From the IMG/VR virus record IMGVR_UViG_3300037280_000040, positions 20,379 to 84,378 of that record: DNA of 64,000 nucleotides; one strand, 5' to 3'. Shown here one piece after another: positions 3,884 through 61,183 of this stretch. Positions within the stretch are counted from its first letter, which is position 1; every line of letters begins with the position of its first letter. The notes under the pieces were generated by a model. That model was not told the DNA's origin and did not search any database. It saw only the letters and a program-made list of their open reading frames with translations. Source of the stretch: a virus. Taxonomy: Duplodnaviria; Heunggongvirae; Uroviricota; Caudoviricetes; Crassvirales. Made by a program: the position numbers and the translations under genes.

Positions 3884-4129
3884 TTAATGAATCCAATATT
3901 TAGCTGTTTCAGGTACTGCAACTAATTTAACTGATTTACAGAATATAGCAGCTGCTTCATCCATAGCTTTTTTTAAATTTGCTGCTACTTCATCTACTAT
4001 TTCATCAGGAGATTCAACTAAGTACTCATCATGTACATCATTAGGAATCCAAACTGTAAACAATAGATTATTTCTAAGTAAATAATTAAAGAATCTAATA
4101 CCTGCTATTTTTGTAACTATAGCTGCTGT
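3884..4129 (-). CDS. DNA polymerase I family (PolA), 3' exon. It carries motif C and the C-terminus.
   Basis: Manual translation of the minus strand gives TAAIVTKIAGIRFFNYLLRNNLLFTVWIPNDVHDEYLVESPDEIVDEVAANLKKAMDEAAAIFCKSVKLVAVPETAKYWIH*. VHDE is PolA motif C. It joins in frame to ...NAPVQG of exon 1. Confidence 0.7.
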   Translation of the reverse strand, partial: TAAIVTKIAGIRFFNYLLRNNLLFTVWIPNDVHDEYLVESPDEIVDEVAANLKKAMDEAAAIFCKSVKLVAVPETAKYWIH

Positions 4130-4918
4130 CAGCTTTGTTATCTTATAGGCTCTTTATCCTATAATTCAATACCTTTAACTTTCGGTATTGCTCGGACTAT
4201 ATCTTAAAATATTATTACAAAAATTTATAAGTTCTTGTGTGGTAGCAGAATTTTTCATAGAGTTAGCTTTCTTACTGATAATCATAATGTTATTTTTAGT
4301 GTAACCAATACTATTATCTATCCTATCTAGAGATGGACTATACTCGTAGTTCCCCTTACTGCCTTTAACTAAAGGAACAAGTAATATAGGACAAATATCA
4401 GGAATAATTATATCTTCTACTGTTAAAGTAAATTCCATATTTTTTCTTTCTGCCCTCTTTTTAGCTGCATTTAGCATACCTACTTTATAAGGAATATCCT
4501 TTTTTAAAGAATTTCTCTTTAAAAGATTAGTTCTTTCCTTAAAACTAGTATCATATAACCTTCTAAATTGTCTCATAGACATATCTTCTGGTTTAGATTC
4601 TATACAATCTATGCAAGCCCACTCTCTTTTATACTCTCCCTTATAAGCAATTCTAAAAGAATCTAGGGGAAGTAATCTTCCACATTTTTTACAAATTTTT
4701 GTTTCCATACATATAGTTATTTATTACTTACACAAAGGTAAGTAATAATTTTGATATATGCAAATATTTTACCCCTTTTCTTGGTGTTTTACCTTCCCAT
4801 AGGGAATCCATACACTAGTCTCTACACCTTCTACTTATTACTAAGTAGCTTGGCTCGGTATTCCCATCTCAGGGTTCACCGAATTTAAGGGTTTTAAATA
4901 GGGCACAACTTTATGTCC
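4130..4918 (-). mobile_element. Group I intron interrupting the PolA gene, with an HNH endonuclease ORF in the P8 position
   Basis: On the minus-strand RNA there is an R-like element, GGUGUAGAGACUA (plus 4816-4828), and an S element, AAGAUAUAGUCC (plus 4194-4205). Exon 1 ends in U and the intron ends in G. A homologous core with compensatory stem changes is present in the RNR intron. Confidence 0.7.
4175..4708 (-). CDS. HNH homing endonuclease encoded inside the PolA intron
   Basis: The N-terminal CKKCG...CIDC zinc ribbon and SLDRIDNSIGYTKNNIMIISKKANSMKN resemble the second HNH ORF at 9137-9805. Confidence 0.6.
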   Translation of the reverse strand: METKICKKCGRLLPLDSFRIAYKGEYKREWACIDCIESKPEDMSMRQFRRLYDTSFKERTNLLKRNSLKKDIPYKVGMLNAAKKRAERKNMEFTLTVEDIIIPDICPILLVPLVKGSKGNYEYSPSLDRIDNSIGYTKNNIMIISKKANSMKNSATTQELINFCNNILRYSPSNTES

Positions 4919-6724
4919 ACCCTGTACAGGTGCATTTAAAGCATTTCTCTCATAACCACTTTTAGTCTGAAAGAATTTACTTACATCTAACATCATTTGA
5001 GGTCTATCATCTCTATTACTTCCATTAGCTATCCATTGCTGTTTAACTACTCTATACTCTGACCAAAACTCATAATCCATTGATTTTTCAATCGCTTTTA
5101 ATTCTTTCCAATCATGTATAAACATTTTATGACCAGTTATAGAATTAATAAGAATATAACCTTTATCCCACATATCTTTCTTTACTCTTTTAAAGTAAAC
5201 TTCTATATTAGGTAACCCAGTTAAATAAGATTTTTCAATAGCATTACCTTGTTCTAAAGGTAAAGATAAATTTCTTGCAATAGTTGAACCATTTCCTCCA
5301 TAATGTATTGAAAATTTAGCTTTTTTTGCTAATGTTCTTAAATCAGGTCTTTTAGGTTTCACTTCTTCTTCAGATAAAATATCTAAATCTTTAGGAAAGC
5401 AAATTTTAGCAACAAAACTATGTCCATCTCTTTTTCTAGTATCATTGTAAAATTCAATAAGTTTTTGTTCCTGAGATAACTCAGCAAATATAAAATCTTC
5501 TTGAGCAGTATAATCACAATCAATTAAAGTATAGCCACTTTGAGCTACAAAACTATGTCTTGTCTCATCATTATTAGGTAGATTTTGTAGGTTAAGATGC
5601 TCTATATTATTAGTTTTATCTTTACCACCACAACTTAATCTACCAGTGTCCATCATCTGATTAAAATTAGTATGAATTCTACCACTAATAGGATTTATTT
5701 GGTCTATAACACCTTGTCCATAAGTACTTACTACCTTATCAAAACCTTTATAATCTAAATAAGGTTGGGTAATAGTTGATACATCTTTCTGTAAACTAAT
5801 TACTTTAGCTTCAACAGATTTTTTCATCAATCCAGTTTTCTTATCTTTAGTAAGTAATTTAAATCCTAAAATTTCAAACAACTTAACTACTTGAGGAGAA
5901 CTAGCCCAATTAATATTACATACAGGTTCAGCATTAAAACCTTCAAATAAATCACCTTGTAAATCAGTTTCTGTAAATTTTAATAATCTTGAATCAGTTT
6001 TACTATTATCTACTACCCATTTATTAAGTACTATTCTAGAATCTTCTAATTTCTTAGAATCATTAGCCATTTTAGACTTCCACTTCTCAATATCTAACTT
6101 AATGCCACTATACTCAATATAAGCAAGTACTTTAACAAATTCATTTTCAACTCTAGCAGCTGAATGTAAGTCTTTTTCTGTTAGAGCTAACTCTTGAGCA
6201 TCTTTGATTTGACTAAGATATTTTACATCATTACAACCATATTCTATAACTTCTTCTGTTAAAGCTCTTTTAATATTACCTCTTTCTGATTTATCAAGAT
6301 AAATGTTTAGATAATTACCAGCACAGCCTTGTAAACCCATGCTTCTTTTACCTGGAGGATAACCCATATAGAGTAATTTCTCTACTACAAAAGTATCATA
6401 AACATTCCTTATAACAATTCTTTTATGATACAAGAATTGTAAATCAAATTTAGCATTATGTAATATAAATAGCTTAGAAGAATCTTCTAATAATGGCTTT
6501 AATAATTCAATATTGATAGTATAATCTATAGCAAATTGATTCTCAAAATCTCCCAACTGAAGTAATAATAATGCTTTTGTATAAACATCTAATCCTTCAG
6601 TTTCAGTATCAAGACCTATGATAGGTTTATCAGCAAAATAATCTAAACAAAATTGTAAATTACATACTGATACTCTATCATAGGTATTGAATAGTTGAAC
6701 ATTATTAGTTATAAAATACTTCAT
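4919..6724 (-). CDS. DNA polymerase I family (PolA), 5' exon. It carries the 3'-5' exonuclease domain and polymerase motifs A and B.
   Basis: Exo I is DTETEGLD. Motif A-like is LIDCDYTAQEDFIFAELS. Motif B is RTLAKKAKFSIHYGG. The conserved ERNALNAPVQG lies just before the splice point. The 24 codons that follow it are intron read-through. Confidence 0.75.
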
Positions 6725-6987: not shown

Positions 6988-7550
6988 ATTACCATGTTAT
7001 TAAAGTCAAGTTCCCATTGATGAGTAGTAAAGAATTTACTACCTAATACACCATGTAACTGTATATTATTATCATGTAATACTACAGTAAATACATCTGT
7101 CATAGGCATTAATACAAATTCTTCTCTAAATTTATAATTATCATAATCAAAATTTAAAGTACATTTAGTACTTTCTTCTATACCACTACCTGTAGTAACT
7201 TTACTATTAGGTAATTCTTCTAAATTATTAGTAGTTTTAATATTATTAAATATGTCTTTATTAAACATATTAACATCAGCCCCACTATCTAATAAGAAGT
7301 TGTATTCTACACCATATAAAGTTAATCTTATGATAGGTAATTTATGCTTCTCAAAATCCTTTTTAAACTTTAATTTATTATCTTTAAGTCTTAATACTCT
7401 TAGATTAAAAATATACTCTTTTTTAATTACTGCTCTAATATGTTTTACCATATAAAACAATGGAATTCCTAAAATTAAAAGGAATCCTAAAATTACCAAA
7501 ATCATTTCTATCATCTTCTCTTTATTTTTTACCAGTTGAGCCAAATCCAC
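6972..7550 (-). CDS. Membrane-anchored retropepsin-like aspartic protease
   Basis: An N-terminal TM helix, MIEMILVILGFLLILGIPLFYMV, plus the LLDSGADVN motif (hh-D-S/T-G-A). Confidence 0.5.
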   Translation of the reverse strand: MDLAQLVKNKEKMIEMILVILGFLLILGIPLFYMVKHIRAVIKKEYIFNLRVLRLKDNKLKFKKDFEKHKLPIIRLTLYGVEYNFLLDSGADVNMFNKDIFNNIKTTNNLEELPNSKVTTGSGIEESTKCTLNFDYDNYKFREEFVLMPMTDVFTVVLHDNNIQLHGVLGSKFFTTHQWELDFNNMVIWTKS

Positions 7551-8010
7551 CTCTATTAGGATTTTTCAAACTCTCAACTTCTACAAATTTAACTTTGCTT
7601 GTAAATAACCATTTTAATTTTATCCATACTGGAGCTGTCTGAGTAGGTCTTATTCTAAACTGACAAATTCTTTCTCCTTCTTTAATGGTAGTAGCTCTAA
7701 AGGCAGTAGCTAAAAATCCCCACTTATCATCATCTCCACAATAAGTATTATCAATAACTCCTTGAGAGTTATTAGATATAATGCCATATTTATTATAGGT
7801 ACTAGACCTAGGTAATACATTAGCTTCAAAATGCTTAGGTAACTGCATACTTACTCCTAATGGAATAATAGCACTATTGAAGAGGATAGAGTTATCACTG
7901 TTAACTTTAGGACCTTGTAAGGTTACTTCTTTTTCAGCTCTAAGGTCTATCCAATCTCCAAAGGATTCAATTTTACAAATAGGATTACTATATTTAATTT
8001 TAATTTTCAT
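7522..8010 (-). CDS. dut: dUTP pyrophosphatase
   Basis: All five dUTPase motifs are present: GDWIDL, PRSS, GVIDNTYCGDD, ERICQF and RGGFGSTG. Confidence 0.85.
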   Translation of the reverse strand: MKIKIKYSNPICKIESFGDWIDLRAEKEVTLQGPKVNSDNSILFNSAIIPLGVSMQLPKHFEANVLPRSSTYNKYGIISNNSQGVIDNTYCGDDDKWGFLATAFRATTIKEGERICQFRIRPTQTAPVWIKLKWLFTSKVKFVEVESLKNPNRGGFGSTGKK

Positions 8011-8013
8011 GTT

Positions 8014-9153
8014 TTATGTTAATGATTGATGAATAAAGAAACATTTAGAGTAAGTACATTCAGAGCACTTAACACAACCTGCTTCATGAACTAGTGGTTT
8101 ACCACAATCAGGACAAACTTCTCCTTTAACTTCTTCTTTAGGAATATATTTACCTAATACTCTACACATTGCTGAACTAAATGAAGTAATATTATCATTT
8201 ATTTTTCTAGTAGTATCTATAATAAAAGATATTGCAGCCCCATGTCTTAATAACATAGAAGTATAAATAGTACAAGCTTTTTCTTCAATCTTATCATTAG
8301 CTAATTGTAAATTAGGATAAACATAAAATTCAGAATTAAACTGATATTGTCCTTTTTTAACTTTAGTAATAGTACCAATAGTATTCTTAGCTAATTTTTC
8401 TCCTAATGAATCTTTCTTTAATTCATAAGCAAATATCTCAAAAGGTTTGCCATCTAATAATCCTACTATAACTGCATAACTAATACCTTGAGATTTAACT
8501 ACATACATTTCAGCAGGTAATGTTTTAGGTCTTTTGGGAGCAGAATTTTCTTTAATTGTACCTAATTTTTCTTCAGTAGTAATGTTATTTAATATACCAT
8601 CTCTACAACCATCTCTATAAATAGTAATACCTTTAAGATTTTTATTCCAAGCCATCATAAATATCTGAGAAATAGTCTCTTCTTTTACATCCTTAGGTAA
8701 ATTAATAGTAGAACTAATAGAATGAGTAGTATATTTTTGAACTATTGATTGTAATTCAATTCTATCCTCCCAATCAATACTAGCTGAATCAGAGTTGTAC
8801 CAAGGAGATTTTTTAAAATAATCTTCTAACTCAAATGTTTTTATTCCTTCACAACCATCATCATATTTAAGTTGAATCCATTGTTTAAATGGTTCATGTA
8901 AAACATAGAATTTAGTAAATTTCTCTCCAGTAATATCAGTAAAATCAACTCTATCATTCTCAGACATACATTTCTTACTTCTCTCATAATAAGGAGCAAA
9001 TATAGGTTCAATACCTGAAGATACTTGTGCCATAATACTTACAGTACCAGTTGGTGCTACAGTAGAAAAAGAAACATTCCTCCTCCCATACTTTTGCATT
9101 TTCTCATATTGTTGTGGAAAATTTTCTTTTATAAATTTATACCAAGCATTCAT
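8014..9153 (-). CDS. Ribonucleotide reductase large subunit, C-terminal fragment, translated as a separate ORF
   Basis: RRNVSFSTVAPTGTVSIMAQVSSGIEP matches the RNR alpha LRNSLLIAPMPTASTSQI...ESIEP region. It ends in a Cys cluster, CPDCG...CVKCSEC. Confidence 0.7.
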   Translation of the reverse strand: MNAWYKFIKENFPQQYEKMQKYGRRNVSFSTVAPTGTVSIMAQVSSGIEPIFAPYYERSKKCMSENDRVDFTDITGEKFTKFYVLHEPFKQWIQLKYDDGCEGIKTFELEDYFKKSPWYNSDSASIDWEDRIELQSIVQKYTTHSISSTINLPKDVKEETISQIFMMAWNKNLKGITIYRDGCRDGILNNITTEEKLGTIKENSAPKRPKTLPAEMYVVKSQGISYAVIVGLLDGKPFEIFAYELKKDSLGEKLAKNTIGTITKVKKGQYQFNSEFYVYPNLQLANDKIEEKACTIYTSMLLRHGAAISFIIDTTRKINDNITSFSSAMCRVLGKYIPKEEVKGEVCPDCGKPLVHEAGCVKCSECTYSKCFFIHQSLT

Positions 9154-9805
9154 ATTTTTTTCTTTTTTGATTTAATGCAATTTTGGTGCACATATTTATA
9201 AAATGTTCTTGAGTATATACATTTTTCATTATATTAATATCCCTATGTACCCATTGTACATTTCCTTCAATATAACCCTTTGTAGAATCTATTCTATCCA
9301 AAGAAGCATCAAAAGCTCCAAAATCTAGATTACCACTATAGACATTTTTTTTATTAATAAGTACTCCTGGTTCAAATAGTTTTATATCTATACCAGATAA
9401 ATTACATTTTTTATTTTGTTTAATAAATAATTCCCATAAATATTCTATAGATATATTAAATTCATGACCTCTTGACTTGGCTGCATTTTTATAATGCCAA
9501 TATAAAGATCTTGGTAAATCCCCTATTCCTTGATGTTTAGGAGAATATCCAACTGAACATATTCTGCCATTTAATTTATTATTTTTCCATTTTTCTCTAT
9601 TAGAACATTTTCTACATCTCGTAGACTTTTCTGATTTTAAAGTATCTCCTCTAATTAATTTTTCAGCTCCACATTTAATACATTGTACTTTTATAAATCC
9701 TCTATGTATATTATTAGTTTTATTCTTAACATTATATACAGTTGAATCAATTACTTTATAAATACCATATATTTCATCTTCTTTAAAATTATATTGTCTT
9801 GGCAT
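9137..9805 (-). CDS. HNH homing endonuclease inserted between two RNR fragments
   Basis: It has a zinc ribbon, CIKCG...CRKCS, and SLDRIDSTKGYIEGNVQWVHRDINIMKN. Its start overlaps the upstream RNR fragment stop as TAATG. Its end overlaps the downstream fragment start by 17 nt. Confidence 0.6.
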   Translation of the reverse strand: MPRQYNFKEDEIYGIYKVIDSTVYNVKNKTNNIHRGFIKVQCIKCGAEKLIRGDTLKSEKSTRCRKCSNREKWKNNKLNGRICSVGYSPKHQGIGDLPRSLYWHYKNAAKSRGHEFNISIEYLWELFIKQNKKCNLSGIDIKLFEPGVLINKKNVYSGNLDFGAFDASLDRIDSTKGYIEGNVQWVHRDINIMKNVYTQEHFINMCTKIALNQKRKKYECLV

Positions 9806-10677
9806 TATAATACTTTTTCTAATTCTGCATCATAACCATCAAATGTACCTCTTATTATAGCTAAATCAATAGTAGAATCTAATTCTCCCATCATTTTAGT
9901 ATAAAGAATTAAATCAGTATATTCTAAAGACTCTTCACTACCATATCTTATACCTAACATAGCAAATACATCTGCTAATCCAGTAAATCCTACTCCAGCT
10001 CTTCTACCTTTTTTAGCAGTTTCTTGGATTTTAATCCATAAATCTAATTCTAATATATCAGGTTCTTCTGCTCTACTAATATGGTCTATAATTCTATCAA
10101 TTGCTTCAACTTCTAAATCAATTAAATCATCTGCTAATCTCATTGTTTTATAAGCTACTTCATATAACTTATCTGTCTCAAATTGAGCAGAATCTGTATA
10201 AGGATTAGATACAAAACTAGCTAAATTAATATGAATTAATCTACAAGAATCATAAGGTTGCATAAAGATTTCACCACAAGGATTTGTTGTAACTCCTCTG
10301 TATTGAGGATATACTCCATCAGGACTATAATCATGATGATTATCTTCAAACATAATTCCTGGCTCAGCAGTATTCCAAGCACAATGTACTAGAGAATTCC
10401 ATAATTCTTTTGCTTTTACTTTCTTAAACCATAATGGATTTAAACTATTTTGAGCTGAATATAACTCATTATAATTAAAATCTCCTATAATCATATTAGC
10501 TCCTGCATTAATAGGAAACTGTTGTATAAAATCTTTATTTTTATCTACTGATTCCATAAATTCAGTAGTAAGCTTTACTGATATATTAGCACCAGTAATC
10601 TTATCTAAATTCTGTTTAGAAGTAATAAAATCTCCACTATCAGGATGTACTATACTAATAGTTTCCATTAATGCCCC
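9805..10677 (-). CDS. Ribonucleotide reductase large subunit, middle exon with the active site
   Basis: The NPCGEI active-site motif and RRAGVGFTGLADVFAMLGIRYGSEESLEY match RNR alpha. It joins in frame to exon 1 as GGRR|GALMETISIVHPD. Confidence 0.7.
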   Translation of the reverse strand, partial: GALMETISIVHPDSGDFITSKQNLDKITGANISVKLTTEFMESVDKNKDFIQQFPINAGANMIIGDFNYNELYSAQNSLNPLWFKKVKAKELWNSLVHCAWNTAEPGIMFEDNHHDYSPDGVYPQYRGVTTNPCGEIFMQPYDSCRLIHINLASFVSNPYTDSAQFETDKLYEVAYKTMRLADDLIDLEVEAIDRIIDHISRAEEPDILELDLWIKIQETAKKGRRAGVGFTGLADVFAMLGIRYGSEESLEYTDLILYTKMMGELDSTIDLAIIRGTFDGYDAELEKVL

Positions 10678-11657
10678 CTATTTGGACTATATCACACCTT
10701 AATTTAATAATTAAGGCTTGGGTTCTAATTCTGGTTATTAAGGGAAACCAATTTCCCTCCAGTAGTCTCTACACCTTCTATAGAATGGTCTATAGCTCGG
10801 CTCGGTATTGCATTATCACTAATGGTTTCACCGAATTCTCCCAATTCAAGACGCAGGGCATTGAATTTATCAAATTTTCTCTTTAATGGTATAAAATCTC
10901 TATCTTGGTATAACCAATCATAGAATTTTAATACATCTTTTTTATTAGAGAATTCTAATACAAAACAATCAGATTTTGTCTTAGGTTTAATAGAAGTAGA
11001 TATCCCTATTTTATATAGTATTTTTTGAGTAGCTAATAAAAGACCATAAGAAGAAGTAAAAGACACTTTTTGCCATATTCTTCCTCTATCTATTCTTTTG
11101 CCCCAAGTTATACAACCATCAGCATCAAATAAACCTTGTATCATATACTTTTCTAAACTATTTTTTAAAATAGGAAGATTTCTTTCTTTTTTAAGAGTAT
11201 TTCCTAAAAATTTAGATAATCCATTTATCTTTCTAGTAATACTAACATCAGGGAATTTTTTAGTAATTTCATTTCTAGTTAAATCTTCAAATGTATTACA
11301 TCCTAATATATTACCTAAAAAATCAATCAATTCTTTATCCCTATGTTGTAGTACTAATTGTACCATATCATTATTTATATAACTATCAGCAGCTATAAAT
11401 CCAATAAGATAAGCCCATTCTTTTGTTTCTATTTTATCTAAAATTAAAGTTGGATTTTTTTTATGAATCATTAAATTAGTTAATTCATACTTTTTAATCC
11501 AATATCTTAAAGATAAAGGTAATAACCCTAAATCTCTTTCTATTTGTCTTACACTTTTTCCCTCTAATAGGAAATTTGATAATTGTTCTTTTGTAATATT
11601 ACATACTCTATTCATTTTCTGTATATATTTAATTAAAATTTAATTAAGAACTTGTTT
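10678..11657 (-). mobile_element. Group I intron in the RNR gene, carrying a LAGLIDADG endonuclease ORF
   Basis: The R-like element is at plus 10762-10774 and the S-like element, GUGAUAUAGUCC, at plus 10684-10695. The core is homologous to the PolA intron, and the variable hairpin shows compensatory changes (ctatag/ctatag here, ctactta/taagtag there). Exon 1 ends ...cgU and the intron ends ...AAAUAG. Confidence 0.7.
10725..11615 (-). CDS. LAGLIDADG homing endonuclease, double-motif, encoded inside the intron
   Basis: The two motifs are LIGFIAADS and GLFDADGCI. Confidence 0.7.
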   Translation of the reverse strand: MNRVCNITKEQLSNFLLEGKSVRQIERDLGLLPLSLRYWIKKYELTNLMIHKKNPTLILDKIETKEWAYLIGFIAADSYINNDMVQLVLQHRDKELIDFLGNILGCNTFEDLTRNEITKKFPDVSITRKINGLSKFLGNTLKKERNLPILKNSLEKYMIQGLFDADGCITWGKRIDRGRIWQKVSFTSSYGLLLATQKILYKIGISTSIKPKTKSDCFVLEFSNKKDVLKFYDWLYQDRDFIPLKRKFDKFNALRLELGEFGETISDNAIPSRAIDHSIEGVETTGGKLVSLNNQN

Positions 11658-12224
11658 ACGTCTACCTCCCTGAGCCACTTCTCTAGTGATTTCAGAGTCT
11701 ACTTCCATAAAAGAAACAGGTCCTGTAGAAGTCTTTGCAGCATTGTTTACAAAAGCTCCATTAGGTCTAAGTAAAGATAAATCTTTACCTACTCCTCCAC
11801 GTCTCTTCATAAGTTGAGCTTGCTCAGTTCTTTTAAGCATAATGCCACCATAAGAATCACTAGGTTGTCCAATTACAAAACAATTAGATAATGAACCTAT
11901 TTGAGTAGTATTACCTAACATACTCATTACTGAACCACCTGGAATGACATATTTAAAATTCTTAAATAATCTATAAATATCAGAATATATATCAGCAGAA
12001 GTAGCTTTTAATAAATCTACTTGTAGCTTTTTTCCATAATCTGATAAAGAATTAACATCATAAGATTTATCTGATTGTTTATAATTCCATTCAATCCTAG
12101 TAAACTCTTTTGCCATTCTTTTGTGCATATCATCAGGAGTTATTTCTCCTTCAATAGCATACTTACTTTTCCAAGCTTGTGTAGCTAATTCATCTCCATT
12201 AAAATACTTAAGTATTTCTTTCAT
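11658..12224 (-). CDS. Ribonucleotide reductase large subunit, 5' exon. No ATP cone is present.
   Basis: GSLSNCFV is the first catalytic Cys motif and VAQGGRR follows it. The ORF tail KQVLN* is intron read-through. Confidence 0.7.
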
Positions 12225-12225
12225 C

Positions 12226-13272
12226 TTAGTTTTTTAAAAATAAGTTAGTTATATCTCTTTGTCCATTAGCTTGATAAGAAGCAAATGAATAATCTATTTT
12301 TCCACTTTCTATGTGCCAATTAAATTCAGTTAATAGATTGTACCAACCTTTATAAAGAGTGCCATCTATTGATATTCTATCTCCTGTAATTTTACTGTCT
12401 TTATAAATCCAACACAATGGTTTCTGATTATATCTATTAATACAAATAAACATAAAAGGTAATATCTCAAAATCTTTAAAATATTCATCTTCTGAGCATA
12501 TTTTTCTTAATATATAAGAATACATAGTAGCTTGTAAATCATATCTCCATGCTGTAAAAGAATGTTCAAATTCTTCTTCAGGTTTACCTGTAGTTTTTAA
12601 ATCTATAGGTTGAATAGTTTTTTCTTTATGATTTACTATTACTCTATCAAACATACATCTAATAGATAATTTACTACCAATTATTCTAAATTTAAGTTGA
12701 TAGAAAGCTTCAGTATCTGTATCAAAAGGATTATCATAAAAGAACTTAGATGTAAATGGATGTGTTTTTAATACTTCTATACATTGTTGTGCTCTATTAT
12801 AATCATTTTGAGACATTAAAGTTTTACCATCACATAATGCTAATAATTCAAAATAAGATTGACCCTCTTCTATAATTTTATTAATTCTAGTAGTATCTTT
12901 CCAATTGGTATAGTAATTTTCTTCATTAATGTACATAAGTATAATATCATGATTAACTTTACTAAGATTATTATTAGTCTTATCAGATTTATCCCATATA
13001 TTAGTAATAATTTTGGTAATTACTTCTGTTGGTTTATTAAATTCAGCTATGACAAATTTATCATTAAGTAACTCTGGCTCAGTCATTAATGTATCTGTTA
13101 GTGACCCAAATCTTAAGGCTTCACTATTTTTTTTATCTTTTAAATGAGGTATGCATTTAGCTCCCTCTCTTGCAAACATACTTAGAGTAGAATATGAAAC
13201 TGCTTCACTTGCTCTATATGTTTCTTCATCAACATCCCATGCTAATTCTTTAATACTTTTTCTTTCTAGCAT
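12226..13272 (-). CDS. Putative PD-(D/E)XK family nuclease (exonuclease-like)
   Basis: MFDRVIV...IQPIDLKTTGK fits the D...(D/E)xK core. Confidence 0.4.
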   Translation of the reverse strand: MLERKSIKELAWDVDEETYRASEAVSYSTLSMFAREGAKCIPHLKDKKNSEALRFGSLTDTLMTEPELLNDKFVIAEFNKPTEVITKIITNIWDKSDKTNNNLSKVNHDIILMYINEENYYTNWKDTTRINKIIEEGQSYFELLALCDGKTLMSQNDYNRAQQCIEVLKTHPFTSKFFYDNPFDTDTEAFYQLKFRIIGSKLSIRCMFDRVIVNHKEKTIQPIDLKTTGKPEEEFEHSFTAWRYDLQATMYSYILRKICSEDEYFKDFEILPFMFICINRYNQKPLCWIYKDSKITGDRISIDGTLYKGWYNLLTEFNWHIESGKIDYSFASYQANGQRDITNLFLKN

Positions 13273-19662: not shown

Positions 19663-20427
19663 TTATTTACGAATAGAAGCTTCAAATTCTCTTAATTCAG
19701 CATCTGAGTAAGAAGAAGTTAATTCTTCTACTTTAGCTACTACTTTATCTTCAGACTCAGTAACTGCATGGTCATCAATACTGGCAATATCTGTTACTAA
19801 AGTATCATACTCATCATCAGCAATAACTTCAGCACCAAAGAGTAAACCTACTATTGCAGTCAATACACTTTTTACAGTAGCTTTAGAAGCTTTTACTTCT
19901 TTAGAAGCAGCTGGTTTTTTAGCTTCTTTTTTAACTACAGGAACAATTTCTTCCACTTTAACTACTGGAGTAGCAGGATTTTTCTTACTAGCTTTAGATG
20001 CAGTAGTACTTACTCCTTGTTTAGAGTTTTTATGTCCATCAACAAATTTTAGCAAATCTTCAGTTTTTACCTGAGTATAGTTTTTACCATCAAATTTTAG
20101 TTTAATAGCATCACCTAATTTGTTTTCTTTGATATAATCAAAGGCATCAGTTCTATCAGAACCTGATTTGATTTTTTTGTTTTTGAGAGTAAGCATAATT
20201 ACTAACTCATTGGTGGTTTCACCTTTATAAGGAAGATTTGTAGGTAATACAGAGCTGTCATCCAATAATTCTACCTTAGCAATTGCTACATAGAATGTCA
20301 TATCATCAAAGTTAATATTGTTTTCAATTAAATTTCCTTTTAATTGACCCAATGTTTCAGCATTACTTACAAAAGTGATTTTACCTTGACCTGCTGCTTT
20401 AATTACCGTAATTTTTCTTGGTTCCAT
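19663..20427 (-). CDS. Hypothetical protein with a Lys/Ala-rich region and a compact N-terminal domain of about 90 aa
   Basis: KKEAKKPAASKEVKASKATVKS is histone H1-like low complexity. The N-terminal domain ends ...KIKSG. Confidence 0.4.
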   Translation of the reverse strand: MEPRKITVIKAAGQGKITFVSNAETLGQLKGNLIENNINFDDMTFYVAIAKVELLDDSSVLPTNLPYKGETTNELVIMLTLKNKKIKSGSDRTDAFDYIKENKLGDAIKLKFDGKNYTQVKTEDLLKFVDGHKNSKQGVSTTASKASKKNPATPVVKVEEIVPVVKKEAKKPAASKEVKASKATVKSVLTAIVGLLFGAEVIADDEYDTLVTDIASIDDHAVTESEDKVVAKVEELTSSYSDAELREFEASIRK

Positions 20428-30493: not shown

Positions 30494-31075
30494 ATGTTTA
30501 GTCCACTATTTCTCAAAATAATAATCAATAGATTTGGTAATATGAGATATTTTACTTATATTTGTATTTTAAGATTTAAAATTATGAATAAAGAAACTTT
30601 AATTAATCTGATTAATCAGAATTTAAGCACTTGGCAGATTGCTGAACAATCTAATACTACTCAAGCTAATGTAAGATATTGGCTTAAAAAGTATGATTTA
30701 CAAACTATTAGAACTATTAATAAAGAGAATGAATTAAAATTATGCCCTAAATGTAATACATCTAAGTTAAAATCTGAATTTTATCAATATAAGAAAAGTA
30801 GTTCTTATTGTAAATCTTGTATTGTTGAATCTAATTTAGAAAGACAAAGAGATACTAAATCTTTAGCTGTTGAATATAAAGGAGGAAAATGTTCTATATG
30901 TGGTTACAATAAATCTATTGCAGCTTTAGAATTTCATCATTTAAATCCAACAGAAAAAGATAAAGATTACTTTAATATGAGAGCAGGATTAACTCCTACT
31001 CTAAAAATAGAATTGGATAAATGTGTACTTCTTTGTGCAAATTGTCATAGAGAAACACATCATTTAATTCAATAA
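30494..31075 (+). CDS. Free-standing HNH endonuclease with an N-terminal HTH. It is the only plus-strand gene in the minus-strand block.
   Basis: The HNH motif is EFHHLNP...CANCHRETHH, with a Cys ribbon CPKCN...CKSC. The HTH-like region is STWQIAEQSNTTQANVRYWLKKY. Confidence 0.6.
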   Translation: MFSPLFLKIIINRFGNMRYFTYICILRFKIMNKETLINLINQNLSTWQIAEQSNTTQANVRYWLKKYDLQTIRTINKENELKLCPKCNTSKLKSEFYQYKKSSSYCKSCIVESNLERQRDTKSLAVEYKGGKCSICGYNKSIAALEFHHLNPTEKDKDYFNMRAGLTPTLKIELDKCVLLCANCHRETHHLIQ

Positions 31076-42885: not shown

Positions 42886-43586
42886 ATCTGATTAGAGTAT
42901 TACTTTCTAATATCATCCAATCTTATATAAATAAGAAGAAATGTAAGTATTGGATTAGAAGTTGGGTTGTAAGTATACAAATATAGTATATTGAGATGTC
43001 CCCAATACAGATAAAAATGACTTATATATAAGTAAATTTCAGACACCCAAGTAATTGAGAAAAGGTAAAGGTAAAGTCTGTTGAGGGATAAAAGTAGAAA
43101 TACTTTAAGACGTGGTTTATGAAGTTATAAGTTTATAAGGACTCTCAGCAATGAGAAGTTTTTTAGTCATTAACAATTTGGCTAGGACTTCTTATATCAA
43201 TAATTAAATAAATAGAAATATTAAAAACAAATAAGGAATAGAACTTAATAGGGGATTGGGGATTGTTGTATGGCAAAGAAAACTCCATTTAAAGCCTTAT
43301 TAAAGTTTATAAATTTGTAAATAAATAAATATTAATAGTATGAAATTAAAAGTAATGAACTTTAAGATTAAACTAGATATGTTTATGGTTAAATATAATA
43401 ATAATATTATTACAAGTATTATTGCTATGTTGCCATTACTATATCTATTATTTTTACTGTAGGAGAAGGAGATAAATACATAAGAATCAAGGTCTAGGAA
43501 GATAGAAAAAATTAAATATAGTTTATTTTTATCTTCTTAATCAAGTTATATGCTTAGAAATTTTATAAAAGATTTGGTAATCTCAA

Positions 43587-43608
43587 TTATTTTACATATC
43601 TTTGTATA
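43587..43608 (+). promoter_or_regulatory. Promoter motif TTTTACATATCTTTGT, with the -7 box at 43597-43604
   Basis: It shares 22 nt of context, caattattttacNtatctttgt, with the copy at 42861. Confidence 0.5.
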
Positions 43609-43794
43609 GACTTTAAGAGATGTCTATATAATTATTAATTTTTAAACTCATATCCTACTATGAAAACAACTAAGAAATCACCTAAAAAGGGTGGTGGCAA
43701 ATGCTAAAGATTTAGTAATTAAGGGGATAAGTAGTTATTCCCTTTTTTATTATTAATTTATAAAGTTTTAACTATATTTATTTGGTATATTAAG

Positions 43795-43816
43795 TAATTA
43801 TACTTATCTTTGTGTA
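43795..43816 (+). promoter_or_regulatory. Promoter motif TACTTATCTTTGTG, with the -7 box at 43805-43812, upstream of gene 43836
   Basis: Motif match. Confidence 0.5.
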
Positions 43817-61139: not shown

Positions 61140-61172
61140 AAAACTTAATGATTTGCATATATTAAGTTTTTT
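61140..61172 (+). terminator. AT-rich hairpin terminator, 10-bp stem aaaacttaat/attaagtttt, directly before a promoter box
   Basis: Perfect inverted repeat with an 11-nt loop followed by TT. The promoter box is at 61176-61183. Confidence 0.45.
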
Positions 61173-61175
61173 ACA

Positions 61176-61183
61176 TATCTTTG
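61176..61183 (+). promoter_or_regulatory. Promoter -7 box TAtcTTTG inside TTTTACATATCTTTGT, upstream of the scaffold gene
   Basis: Motif family match. Confidence 0.5.

Follow-up and report, generated by a model that had tools for sequence, protein, structure and literature searches.

A free-standing homing-endonuclease-like gene divides nrdJ, a class II ribonucleotide reductase gene, in a Crassvirales phage

How does a phage come to encode one ribonucleotide reductase (RNR) in three pieces, and could an enzyme divided in this way still work? These questions are raised by a 64,000 nucleotide (nt) stretch of DNA from a Crassvirales virus (IMGVR_UViG_3300037280_000040, positions 20,379 to 84,378; hereafter the window), in which nrdJ, the gene for a class II RNR, is interrupted twice. 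The RNR of the crAss-like phage cr106_1 (Steigviridae) is a single open reading frame (ORF) of 849 residues, whereas that of the window lies in pieces. We find that the window nrdJ is cut by a free-standing nuclease gene, enclosed by neither intron nor intein, and, further upstream, by a group I intron, leaving the gene in three pieces by two mechanisms.

A nuclease gene between two fragments of nrdJ

All genes in the nrdJ part of the window lie on the minus strand. The features discussed below are:

12224..11658, minus strand: nrdJ exon 1, 189 codons ending ...AQGGRR, with CGT before the splice site (ORF list and alignment with the intron-less allele of contig L003)
11657..10678, minus strand: group I intron of 980 nt with a LAGLIDADG ORF at 11615..10725 (Pfam, Rfam, covariance model R1, and contig L003, which lacks the intron)
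10677..9805, minus strand: nrdJ fragment 2, 290 codons and a TAA stop (ORF list, Pfam, NCBIfam, and the L003 protein P0010)
9805..9137, minus strand: free-standing homing-endonuclease-like ORF of 222 residues, with an N-terminal CxxC..CxxC zinc ribbon and a C-terminal beta-beta-alpha-Me domain
9153..8014, minus strand: nrdJ fragment 3, 379 codons with its own start and a Cys-rich zinc-finger tail at the end
9065..9854, minus strand: converted tract, consisting of the nuclease ORF and diverged nrdJ flanks (DNA alignment with contig L002)
9058..9060, minus strand: GTA (Val) codon of STV^APTG, the intron site of the relatives of the nuclease (insertion site of five intron-borne relatives)

Exon 1 and fragment 2 together encode an N-terminal polypeptide of 479 residues. 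Fragment 2 is in frame from the GGG at 10677, reads GALMETISIVHPD...NPCGEI...AELEKVL, holds both NPCGEI and DSCRL, and ends ...FDGYDAELEKVL* at a TAA (9807..9805) that shares its last A with the start codon of the nuclease ORF (ATG, 9805..9803), giving TAATG. Separated from fragment 2 by this TAA and read in another frame, the nuclease ORF runs to its own TAA at 9139..9137; the ATG of fragment 3 (9153..9151) overlaps its end by 17 nt. Fragment 3 reads MNAWYKF...RRNVSFSTVAPTG..., also written MNAWYKF...GRRNVSFSTVAPTG.... An initial annotation of this DNA had given the coordinates, the TAATG start and the 17-nt overlap correctly. The same order of fragment 2, 222-residue ORF and 379-residue fragment 3 recurs in the independent contigs L003, L175, L176 and L177, which come from different samples; the split layout is therefore not an assembly artefact. 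The exact fragment 3 protein is encoded on four further contigs, and the window-type allele is present in at least five independent contigs.

By sequence, the enzyme belongs to the class II (adenosylcobalamin) NrdJ type and is no NrdA, with NCBIfam NrdJ_Z and PRK08665 as best matches. Fragment 2 covers positions 83-341 and fragment 3 positions 367-523 of the Pfam RNR barrel model; on the NCBIfam NrdJ_Z model the two cover 157-412 and 437-602, respectively. The concatenate of exon 1 and fragments 2 and 3 (858 residues) aligns end to end with the 849-residue NrdJ of cr106_1 (about 55%) and is also collinear with 29 other crAss-type NrdJ proteins (alignment A1). The best match in the Protein Data Bank is the T. 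maritima NrdJ, 1xje, and this alignment crosses the junction unbroken. Together with the fused L002 allele described below, these comparisons bear out the collinearity of the fragments with one RNR that the initial annotation had posited. The catalytic residues (the cysteines of LSNCF, NPCGE and DSC) are invariant in alignment A1, and all three active-site cysteines reside in the N-terminal product. The C-terminal product, NrdJ-C (379 residues), comprises the APTG loop, the second half of the barrel and the C-terminal Cys-rich tail.

The break between residues 479 and 480 was located on an AlphaFold model of NrdJ, for which the mean predicted local distance difference test score (pLDDT) is 73.8 and reaches 78-83 around the junction. 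In the model, it falls in a turn between two short helices (473-478 and 482-490), following the long helix 437-465 and preceding the GRRN...APTG loop; on this structural prediction, the insertion point of the nuclease ORF is shown to be a variable surface turn of NrdJ. The stretch from F468 to M498 is the most variable part of the region. Native sequence continues up to E476 (27/29 homologues), three residues before the stop, and resumes with N481, W483 and Y484. The new ends thus hold at most about 3+1 non-native residues, and about five linker residues are absent relative to the closest intact allele.

The surroundings of nrdJ follow the gene order of cr106_1: PD-(D/E)XK exonuclease, vitamin-B12-dependent RNR, dUTPase, aspartyl protease, muconolactone-isomerase-like protein and DNA polymerase I.

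The nuclease and its spread among nrdJ alleles

The initial annotation had called the inserted ORF an HNH endonuclease. It matches PHROG families named 'endonuclease', 'endonuclease VII' and 'HNH endonuclease', but Pfam returned no significant match for the 222-residue ORF, and no Pfam HNH model scores it. An alignment of 55 family members reveals an invariant CxxC...CxxC zinc ribbon, invariant S168, R171, Y178, N182, Q184, W185 and N191, and the family motif SLDRID..GY..GNVQW..N..K. The AlphaFold model of the nuclease (pLDDT 89.6) contains the beta-beta-alpha unit of the beta-beta-alpha-Me fold, and the invariant N182 and N191 account for the metal-ligand Asn of the alpha-helix and the structural Asn. 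Among the 55 members there is no conserved catalytic His at the end of beta-1, where the motif reads S-L-D-R-I-D. PacI is a His-Me-finger enzyme in which a loop tyrosine stands in place of the catalytic histidine (PMC5714182), and the invariant Tyr178 lies in the loop between the strands, equivalent to the tyrosine loop of PacI. Judged by alignment and model, the HNH name holds only at the level of the fold, and the ORF is a His-less, PacI-like variant with putative nuclease activity. Membership of the F-CphI/endonuclease VII 'DHHRN' group was considered and rejected, as the ORF has D-R-x-D and no His (PMC6083498).

Two alleles from near-identical phages bracket the window. Contig L002 carries the intron and lacks the nuclease gene; its P0003 is one 684-residue ORF in which fragments 2 and 3 are fused, and the site reads ...FDGYDRDKEYDSVSYVANNDFYDFL.... 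Contig L003 carries the nuclease and lacks the upstream intron, with only eight other aligned mismatches to the window; its P0010 is a 479-residue ORF equal to exon 1 plus fragment 2, with the same ...AELEKVL stop followed by the TAATG ORF. The intron-less L003 reads unbroken through GGRRGALMETIS, which sets the 5' splice site after T11658 (CGT^) and the intron bounds at 11657..10678, the last intron base being G. The upstream interruption is accordingly a genuine group I intron with exact boundaries, and the view of an RNR gene in three pieces by two mechanisms stands. With both elements in the window, three of the four possible combinations occur in this trio. Because near-identical phages carry the nuclease only, the intron only or both, both elements are, on comparison of the alleles, mobile now or recently. 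For the nuclease gene, presence and absence among near-identical genomes is accompanied by co-converted flanks, as detailed next.

Over 6.8 kb of upstream flank, L002 and the window are 99.87% identical. They are about 100% identical through nrdJ as well, save for the block 9854..9065 and a second patch. The block comprises the 669-nt ORF and diverged flanks of about 25-50 nt upstream and about 90 nt downstream; its first mismatches are at 9854 and 9848, it is solidly diverged from 9828, and the last mismatch is at 9065. A counterpart is found in P0122 (contigs L084-L087), where a nuclease 68% identical to that of the window splits a divergent nrdJ (41-57% amino acid identity) at the same position. 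The L084 junctions read ...FDGWDANIEKV*, then the ORF, an ATGA overlap and MNNWYKFIKENFPEQYERMQKFGRRNVSFSTVAPTGTV; the fragment 3 equivalent begins MNNWYKF..., and the fragment 3 ATG is kept in this cassette. Over the 38 codons of the downstream flank, the window is 86% identical to L084 in nucleotides and 89% in amino acids, versus 71% and 66% to L002. As the flank is nearer to L084 than to L002 and the split position is the same, the ORF and its flanks move jointly between divergent nrdJ genes. Such joint movement is the signature of homing with co-conversion, which has been demonstrated for the free-standing endonucleases T4 MobE, SegG and S-PM2 F-CphI (PMC2790892, PMC6083498).

The second mosaic patch, at about 8937..8800 in fragment 3, is about 58% identical to L002, with indels, amid surroundings of 100% identity, and falls in a length-variable surface insertion of NrdJ. 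We rejected it as a part of the cassette, since by eye it is not L084-like; the patch probably reflects an independent recombination. A Trp-to-Phe change in RRNVSFSTV (W508F) was likewise rejected as an immunity mark, given that Phe is also present in 4/29 nuclease-free homologues. Exact-pattern scans of IMG/VR and metagenome contigs with the cassette flank TGGTATAAATTTATAAAAGARAATTTTCC gave no match, and a protein-guided metagenome scan returned no relative above 48% identity; hence all known members of the free-standing clade are from contigs of ENA, Logan and JGI found via a protein database.

Outside the free-standing clade, the nearest relatives of the nuclease (L004, L088, L091, L092 and L093; 46-50% identity) all reside within phage nrdJ genes. 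All five interrupt nrdJ between the second and third base of a Val or Ile codon, ST(V/I)^APTG, with boundaries ...ACC(G/A)T^ and ...G^; the shared site holds wherever splice sites were mapped. At 54 bits, L004 clears the Rfam gathering threshold for group I introns. In these intron-borne relatives, 63-152 nt of non-coding sequence precede the ORF and 89-166 nt follow it, and the proteins end ...NHANQ(Q/K)PS in the part shared by ORF and ribozyme. This tail is missing from the free-standing copies in the window and in L084, which have 0-1 nt before the ORF and overlap the next ATG. The window nuclease ORF is 32 codons (95 nt) upstream of the APTG intron site, and the end of its diverged patch, at 9065, is 6 nt upstream of that site (9059/9058). 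In L084, the free-standing copy is 114 nt upstream of a group I intron that is inserted at GTV^S and carries a paralogous nuclease.

Further interruptions were observed in related nrdJ genes. That of L084 (1429..6735; also in L085 and L086) has three interruptions of three different kinds, namely a LAGLIDADG intein at NP^CGEI, the nuclease split, and the group I intron at APTGTV^S, and an I-HmuI-like ORF lies just downstream of the gene. The group I introns of L004 (2888..3804) and L084 (about 4768..5668) are homologous, with similar 5' arms and cores and sites 18 nt apart; both sites, ST(V/I)^APTG and APTGTV^S, follow the pentamer ACYGT of a Thr-Val codon pair, which hints at site switching guided by P1 pairing. 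The closest full-length relatives of the window enzyme, P0001 (72%) and P0009 (58%), have inteins at the NPC^GEI loop, one of them with LAGLIDADG; the window has no intein there.

A proposed two-polypeptide enzyme and its alternatives

Taken as a whole, the locus is best explained, with a probability of about 0.8, by a free-standing homing endonuclease gene (HEG) that sits inside nrdJ, moves by co-conversion and leaves a two-polypeptide NrdJ, with reassembly of the halves and nuclease activity as predicted parts of the explanation. After splicing of the group I intron, the mRNA would encode NrdJ-N (479 residues), the nuclease and NrdJ-C (379 residues), the inserted ORF supplying or abutting the stop for the upstream part (TAATG) and supplying the ATG for the downstream part. 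The three ORFs would be co-transcribed and translationally coupled; consistent with this, no internal Bacteroidetes-type promoter (TTTG-N18-22-TAnnTTTG) was found in 8000..12300. The sequence upstream of the fragment 3 ATG is A-rich (AAATCAAAAAAGAAAAAAATATG), and an A-rich upstream region is typical of Bacteroidetes initiation regions. NrdJ-N and NrdJ-C would then join non-covalently, via the native barrel interface and with no tails of the type known from phage Aeh1, to form the active enzyme. The nuclease, for its part, would be descended from the endonucleases of group I introns at ST(V/I)^APTG of phage nrdJ, and would still cut or nick nuclease-less nrdJ alleles near the ancestral intron site. 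Repair from nuclease-carrying, co-infecting genomes would copy the ORF, the roughly 95 nt from cut to ORF, and a short upstream flank; the foreign patch would be explained because repair copies the sequence between the cut and the ORF as well as the upstream flank.

Several considerations weigh against this explanation. That the two parts are translated separately, that they reassemble and that the nuclease is active are each predictions from sequence. The nuclease family is without the canonical catalytic His, and its activity would hang on a putative PacI-like Tyr mechanism, argued by analogy. The insertion in the window lineage is very recent, so that intact ORFs say little on function, and the case for a functional split comes from the comparison with L084, over only 38 flank codons, and from the intron kept downstream in that lineage. 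Assembly in Aeh1 needs insertion-derived tails, of which there are essentially none here. The end of the patch at APTG could simply reflect extreme conservation of the APTG codons, masking conversion beyond them. Finally, U...G joins can be drawn across the ORF, and RNA splicing would remain formally compatible with the bare sequence.

The 99.87% identity of the flanks of the window and the nuclease-less L002 marks the insertion as very young, and the locus might accordingly be read as a recent disruption: the split nrdJ would be non-functional or partly functional, the phage would live on host deoxynucleoside triphosphates, and the fragments would be undecayed for lack of time. Such a reading would also sit well with the lack of Aeh1-like assembly tails (PMC3045599) and with the loss of RNR in some crAss-like phages (PMC7886860). 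We nonetheless regard it as unlikely. A split at the same codon position, with stop and ATG kept, is present in the L084 cassette at a synonymous divergence (dS) of about 1; the 38-codon downstream flank exon of L084 has a ratio of nonsynonymous to synonymous divergence (dN/dS) of 0.13 relative to the window, and nrdJ downstream of it has a recognisable group I intron and open exons. The recurrence of the window-type allele in independent contigs and the location of the break, in a variable turn between helices where no core element is hit, also argue against disruption. These same observations, namely the stop and ATG kept in two cassette lineages, the constrained flank, the intron core and open exons retained by L084, and the inter-helix position of the break, are, together with the A-rich stretch before the fragment 3 ATG and the negative search for an internal promoter, the points in favor of a working split enzyme.

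A broader scenario may also be entertained, though we hold it tentatively and think it somewhat more apt to fail than to stand. The cassette could be an evolutionary intermediate between intron-encoded and free-standing HEGs, one that left, or never entered, the APTG-site intron and kept its target. It would be a self-contained gene-splitting module, in which stop, ORF and ATG come with about 90 nt of flanking sequence for immunity, that can be inserted in divergent nrdJ genes without killing them, as class II RNR would tolerate a cut here without helper tails. If so, L084, in which the cassette lies 114 nt upstream of a paralogue-bearing intron, would be a case of natural collaborative homing inside one gene.

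A further alternative is a compact or highly degenerate self-splicing intron, of group I or another kind, whose core would overlap the nuclease ORF and whose splicing would restore the nrdJ frame at the RNA level. The closest relatives of the ORF are intron-encoded, with ribozyme cores that overlap the ORF 3' ends, and the upstream intron of the same gene is itself nearly devoid of ORF-free sequence: its LAGLIDADG ORF reaches about 180 nt into the ribozyme core (10725..10903), and only about 89 nt of the 980-nt intron are outside the ORF. The argument made in the initial annotation, that there is no non-coding room and so no ribozyme, is therefore unsafe in this genome and weak on its own, even though its conclusion agrees with the searches, which found no ribozyme. 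By eye, one can moreover draw several in-frame joins that have U at -1 and G as the last base of the supposed intron (e.g., GAT^...ATG^AAT); each would remove native, conserved residues.

The upstream intron served as a positive control for the searches. Its ORF matches LAGLIDADG_3 (Pfam, E=1.6e-12), and its core is detected by Rfam Intron_gpI (RF00028; 28.8 bits, E=1.3e-5) at 10677..10903, up to the predicted 3' splice site. R1, a covariance model built from the 3' cores of six introns bearing relatives of the nuclease, detects the core at 10597..10805 with filters off (39.6 bits, E=1.6e-8). An Rfam scan of 5.3 kb (7500..12800) missed even this intron, and its negative outcome is uninformative; scans of short stretches recovered the control. 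Scanned as a short stretch, 9050..9900 gave no intron family at E<=10, and the best R1 score in the nuclease region was at the level of noise (9.7 bits, E=0.18), while every control intron was detected (Rfam: upstream intron 28.8 bits, L004 54 bits, L084 34.1 bits; R1: upstream intron 39.6 bits). The statement that no group I core lies at the ORF, made before these searches, is thereby upheld, and no group II core was found in or around the ORF either. There is no rise in GC over the nuclease ORF (0.18-0.32), against 0.41 at the upstream core. Relative to the 68%-identical homologue, the ORF has dN/dS of 0.20 over 218 codons at dS of about 1.07, and 0.21 over its first 70 codons; the entire ORF has thus been evolving as coding DNA, with no space left for a conserved RNA core. 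The free-standing copies also lack the non-coding arms and the core-overlapping ...NHANQ(Q/K)PS tail, and native RNR residues extend to within three codons of the stop and one codon of the ATG. A hidden intron is thus very improbable.

Least credible is a joining or reading through of the halves, whether by intein, split intein, ribosomal bypass or frameshifting over the ORF, for although relatives (P0001, P0009 and L084) have inteins at NP^CGEI, split inteins in fractured RNR genes are known (PMC2677866) and T4 gene 60 bypasses 50 nt (10.1101/2022.08.31.505936), the nuclease ORF is in another frame with a TAA between it and fragment 2, Pfam found no intein or Hint domain in fragment 2, the nuclease ORF or fragment 3 while detecting the inteins of relatives, the fragment ends are native RNR with no N- or C-intein halves, and a bypass of 669 nt is without precedent. 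Because the frame changes, a TAA intervenes and Hint domains are lacking, the insertion is not an intein, as the initial annotation had held; what lies between the fragments is a complete, selectively constrained nuclease gene in another frame.

A number of observations concern other mobile elements and promoter motifs. Within the upstream nrdJ intron, 87 nt of the core (10731..10817) have a 91%-identical counterpart in the DNA of Flavobacterium phages vB_FspM_immuto, annotated 'hypothetical protein', which suggests a related, unannotated intron there. The DNA polymerase I gene of the window is also interrupted (3884..6724, minus strand): a 627-residue ORF at 6724..4841 passes into sequence unlike PolA, 4708..4175 holds an HNH-fold ORF whose family is related to that of the nrdJ nuclease (28% identity between the two), and the PolA C-terminus with its HDE motif resumes at 4063..3884. 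Weak Rfam group I matches occur in this locus at 4721..4939 (19.9 bits, E=0.018) and 4173..4287, and a Bacteroidetes-type promoter motif is located at 4733..4764, just upstream of the HNH-fold ORF. Elsewhere, 54 nt of the window (30519..30572, plus strand) are 85% identical to L084 6753..6806, each just upstream of a free-standing nuclease ORF: a canonical HNH ORF on the strand opposite to its neighbors in the window (30494..31075) and an I-HmuI-like ORF in L084 (6816..7736). The 54-nt stretch contains TTTG-N20-TATATTTG, the Bacteroidetes promoter consensus, and might represent a promoter carried along by homing endonuclease genes. Three close matches to TTTG-N20-TAnnTTTG (43573..43604, 43781..43812 and 61152..61183, all plus strand) share the extra bases TTTGGTAAT...TTTTAC.TAT.TTTG and may be host-type early promoters.

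Comparison with known systems

To our knowledge, there is essentially one well-studied example of an essential-enzyme gene fragmented by a free-standing HEG, the nrdA/mobE locus of phage Aeh1. The likeness to Aeh1 drawn in the initial annotation stands as far as gene-splitting by a free-standing endonuclease is concerned and fails for the RNR class, the split site and the tails. In nrdA-a/mobE/nrdA-b of Aeh1 (PMC3045599), as in the window, a free-standing HEG of the HNH superfamily splits the gene for the RNR large subunit into two genes, separately translated in Aeh1 and predicted to be so here, the endonuclease gene extends into the downstream fragment, and there is neither intron nor intein. 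The Aeh1 enzyme is a class Ia NrdA, while that of the window is a class II NrdJ. The Aeh1 break falls between the equivalents of Cys439 and Cys462 and so parts the active-site cysteines; here, the N-terminal piece keeps all three cysteines and the break comes about 145 residues later, in the variable turn. Insertion-derived charged tails are needed in Aeh1 (PMC3045599), in contrast to the about 3+1 non-native residues of the window, which form no such tails. The window nuclease, moreover, is of the His-less PacI-like type.

Closest by descent are the APTG-site intron endonucleases of L004, L088, L091, L092 and L093, which share with the window ORF the family, the zinc ribbon, the SLDRID motif and the host gene, and whose introns are inserted at the point where the converted tract of the window ends. 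They differ in residing within Rfam-detected ribozymes with non-coding arms, whereas the window ORF has none and lies 32 codons upstream. That the nearest relatives are intron-borne only 95 nt away offers a handle on how endonuclease genes join group I introns and part from them.

Enzymes that are single chains elsewhere can be made as two assembling polypeptides, as in the T4 topoisomerase gp39/mobA/gp60, which differs from the present case in the enzyme and in its additional translational bypass. A class II RNR works in two pieces in Pseudomonas aeruginosa NrdJa/NrdJb, with no HEG between the pieces and a split nearer the C-terminus.

With regard to mobility, the window resembles cases of intronless, collaborative or trans homing, T4 MobE with I-TevIII (PMC2790892) and S-PM2 F-CphI with the psbA intron (PMC6083498), in that the HEG is near, not at, its presumed target and the flanks between cut and gene are co-converted; the L084 copy, likewise, lies beside an intron of the same gene (114 nt). 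In those systems, the HEG lies between genes, the target gene is unsplit and cleavage was mapped, whereas cleavage is only predicted here. The allele trio and the sharply bounded tract would represent homing caught in a natural gut-phage population, and they predict the cut site of the nuclease.

Work on crAss-like phages has described dense introns and inteins and mentioned 'unknown forms of gene fragmentation' (PMC7886860); in the literature searched, we came across no account of this split of nrdJ. In the annotation of crAss-like phages, splits of this kind yield apparent truncated RNR genes and hypothetical proteins. As its RNR class, its break point, its lack of tails and its phage group (Crassvirales, human gut) set the new case apart from Aeh1, it tests the generality of the Aeh1 solution.

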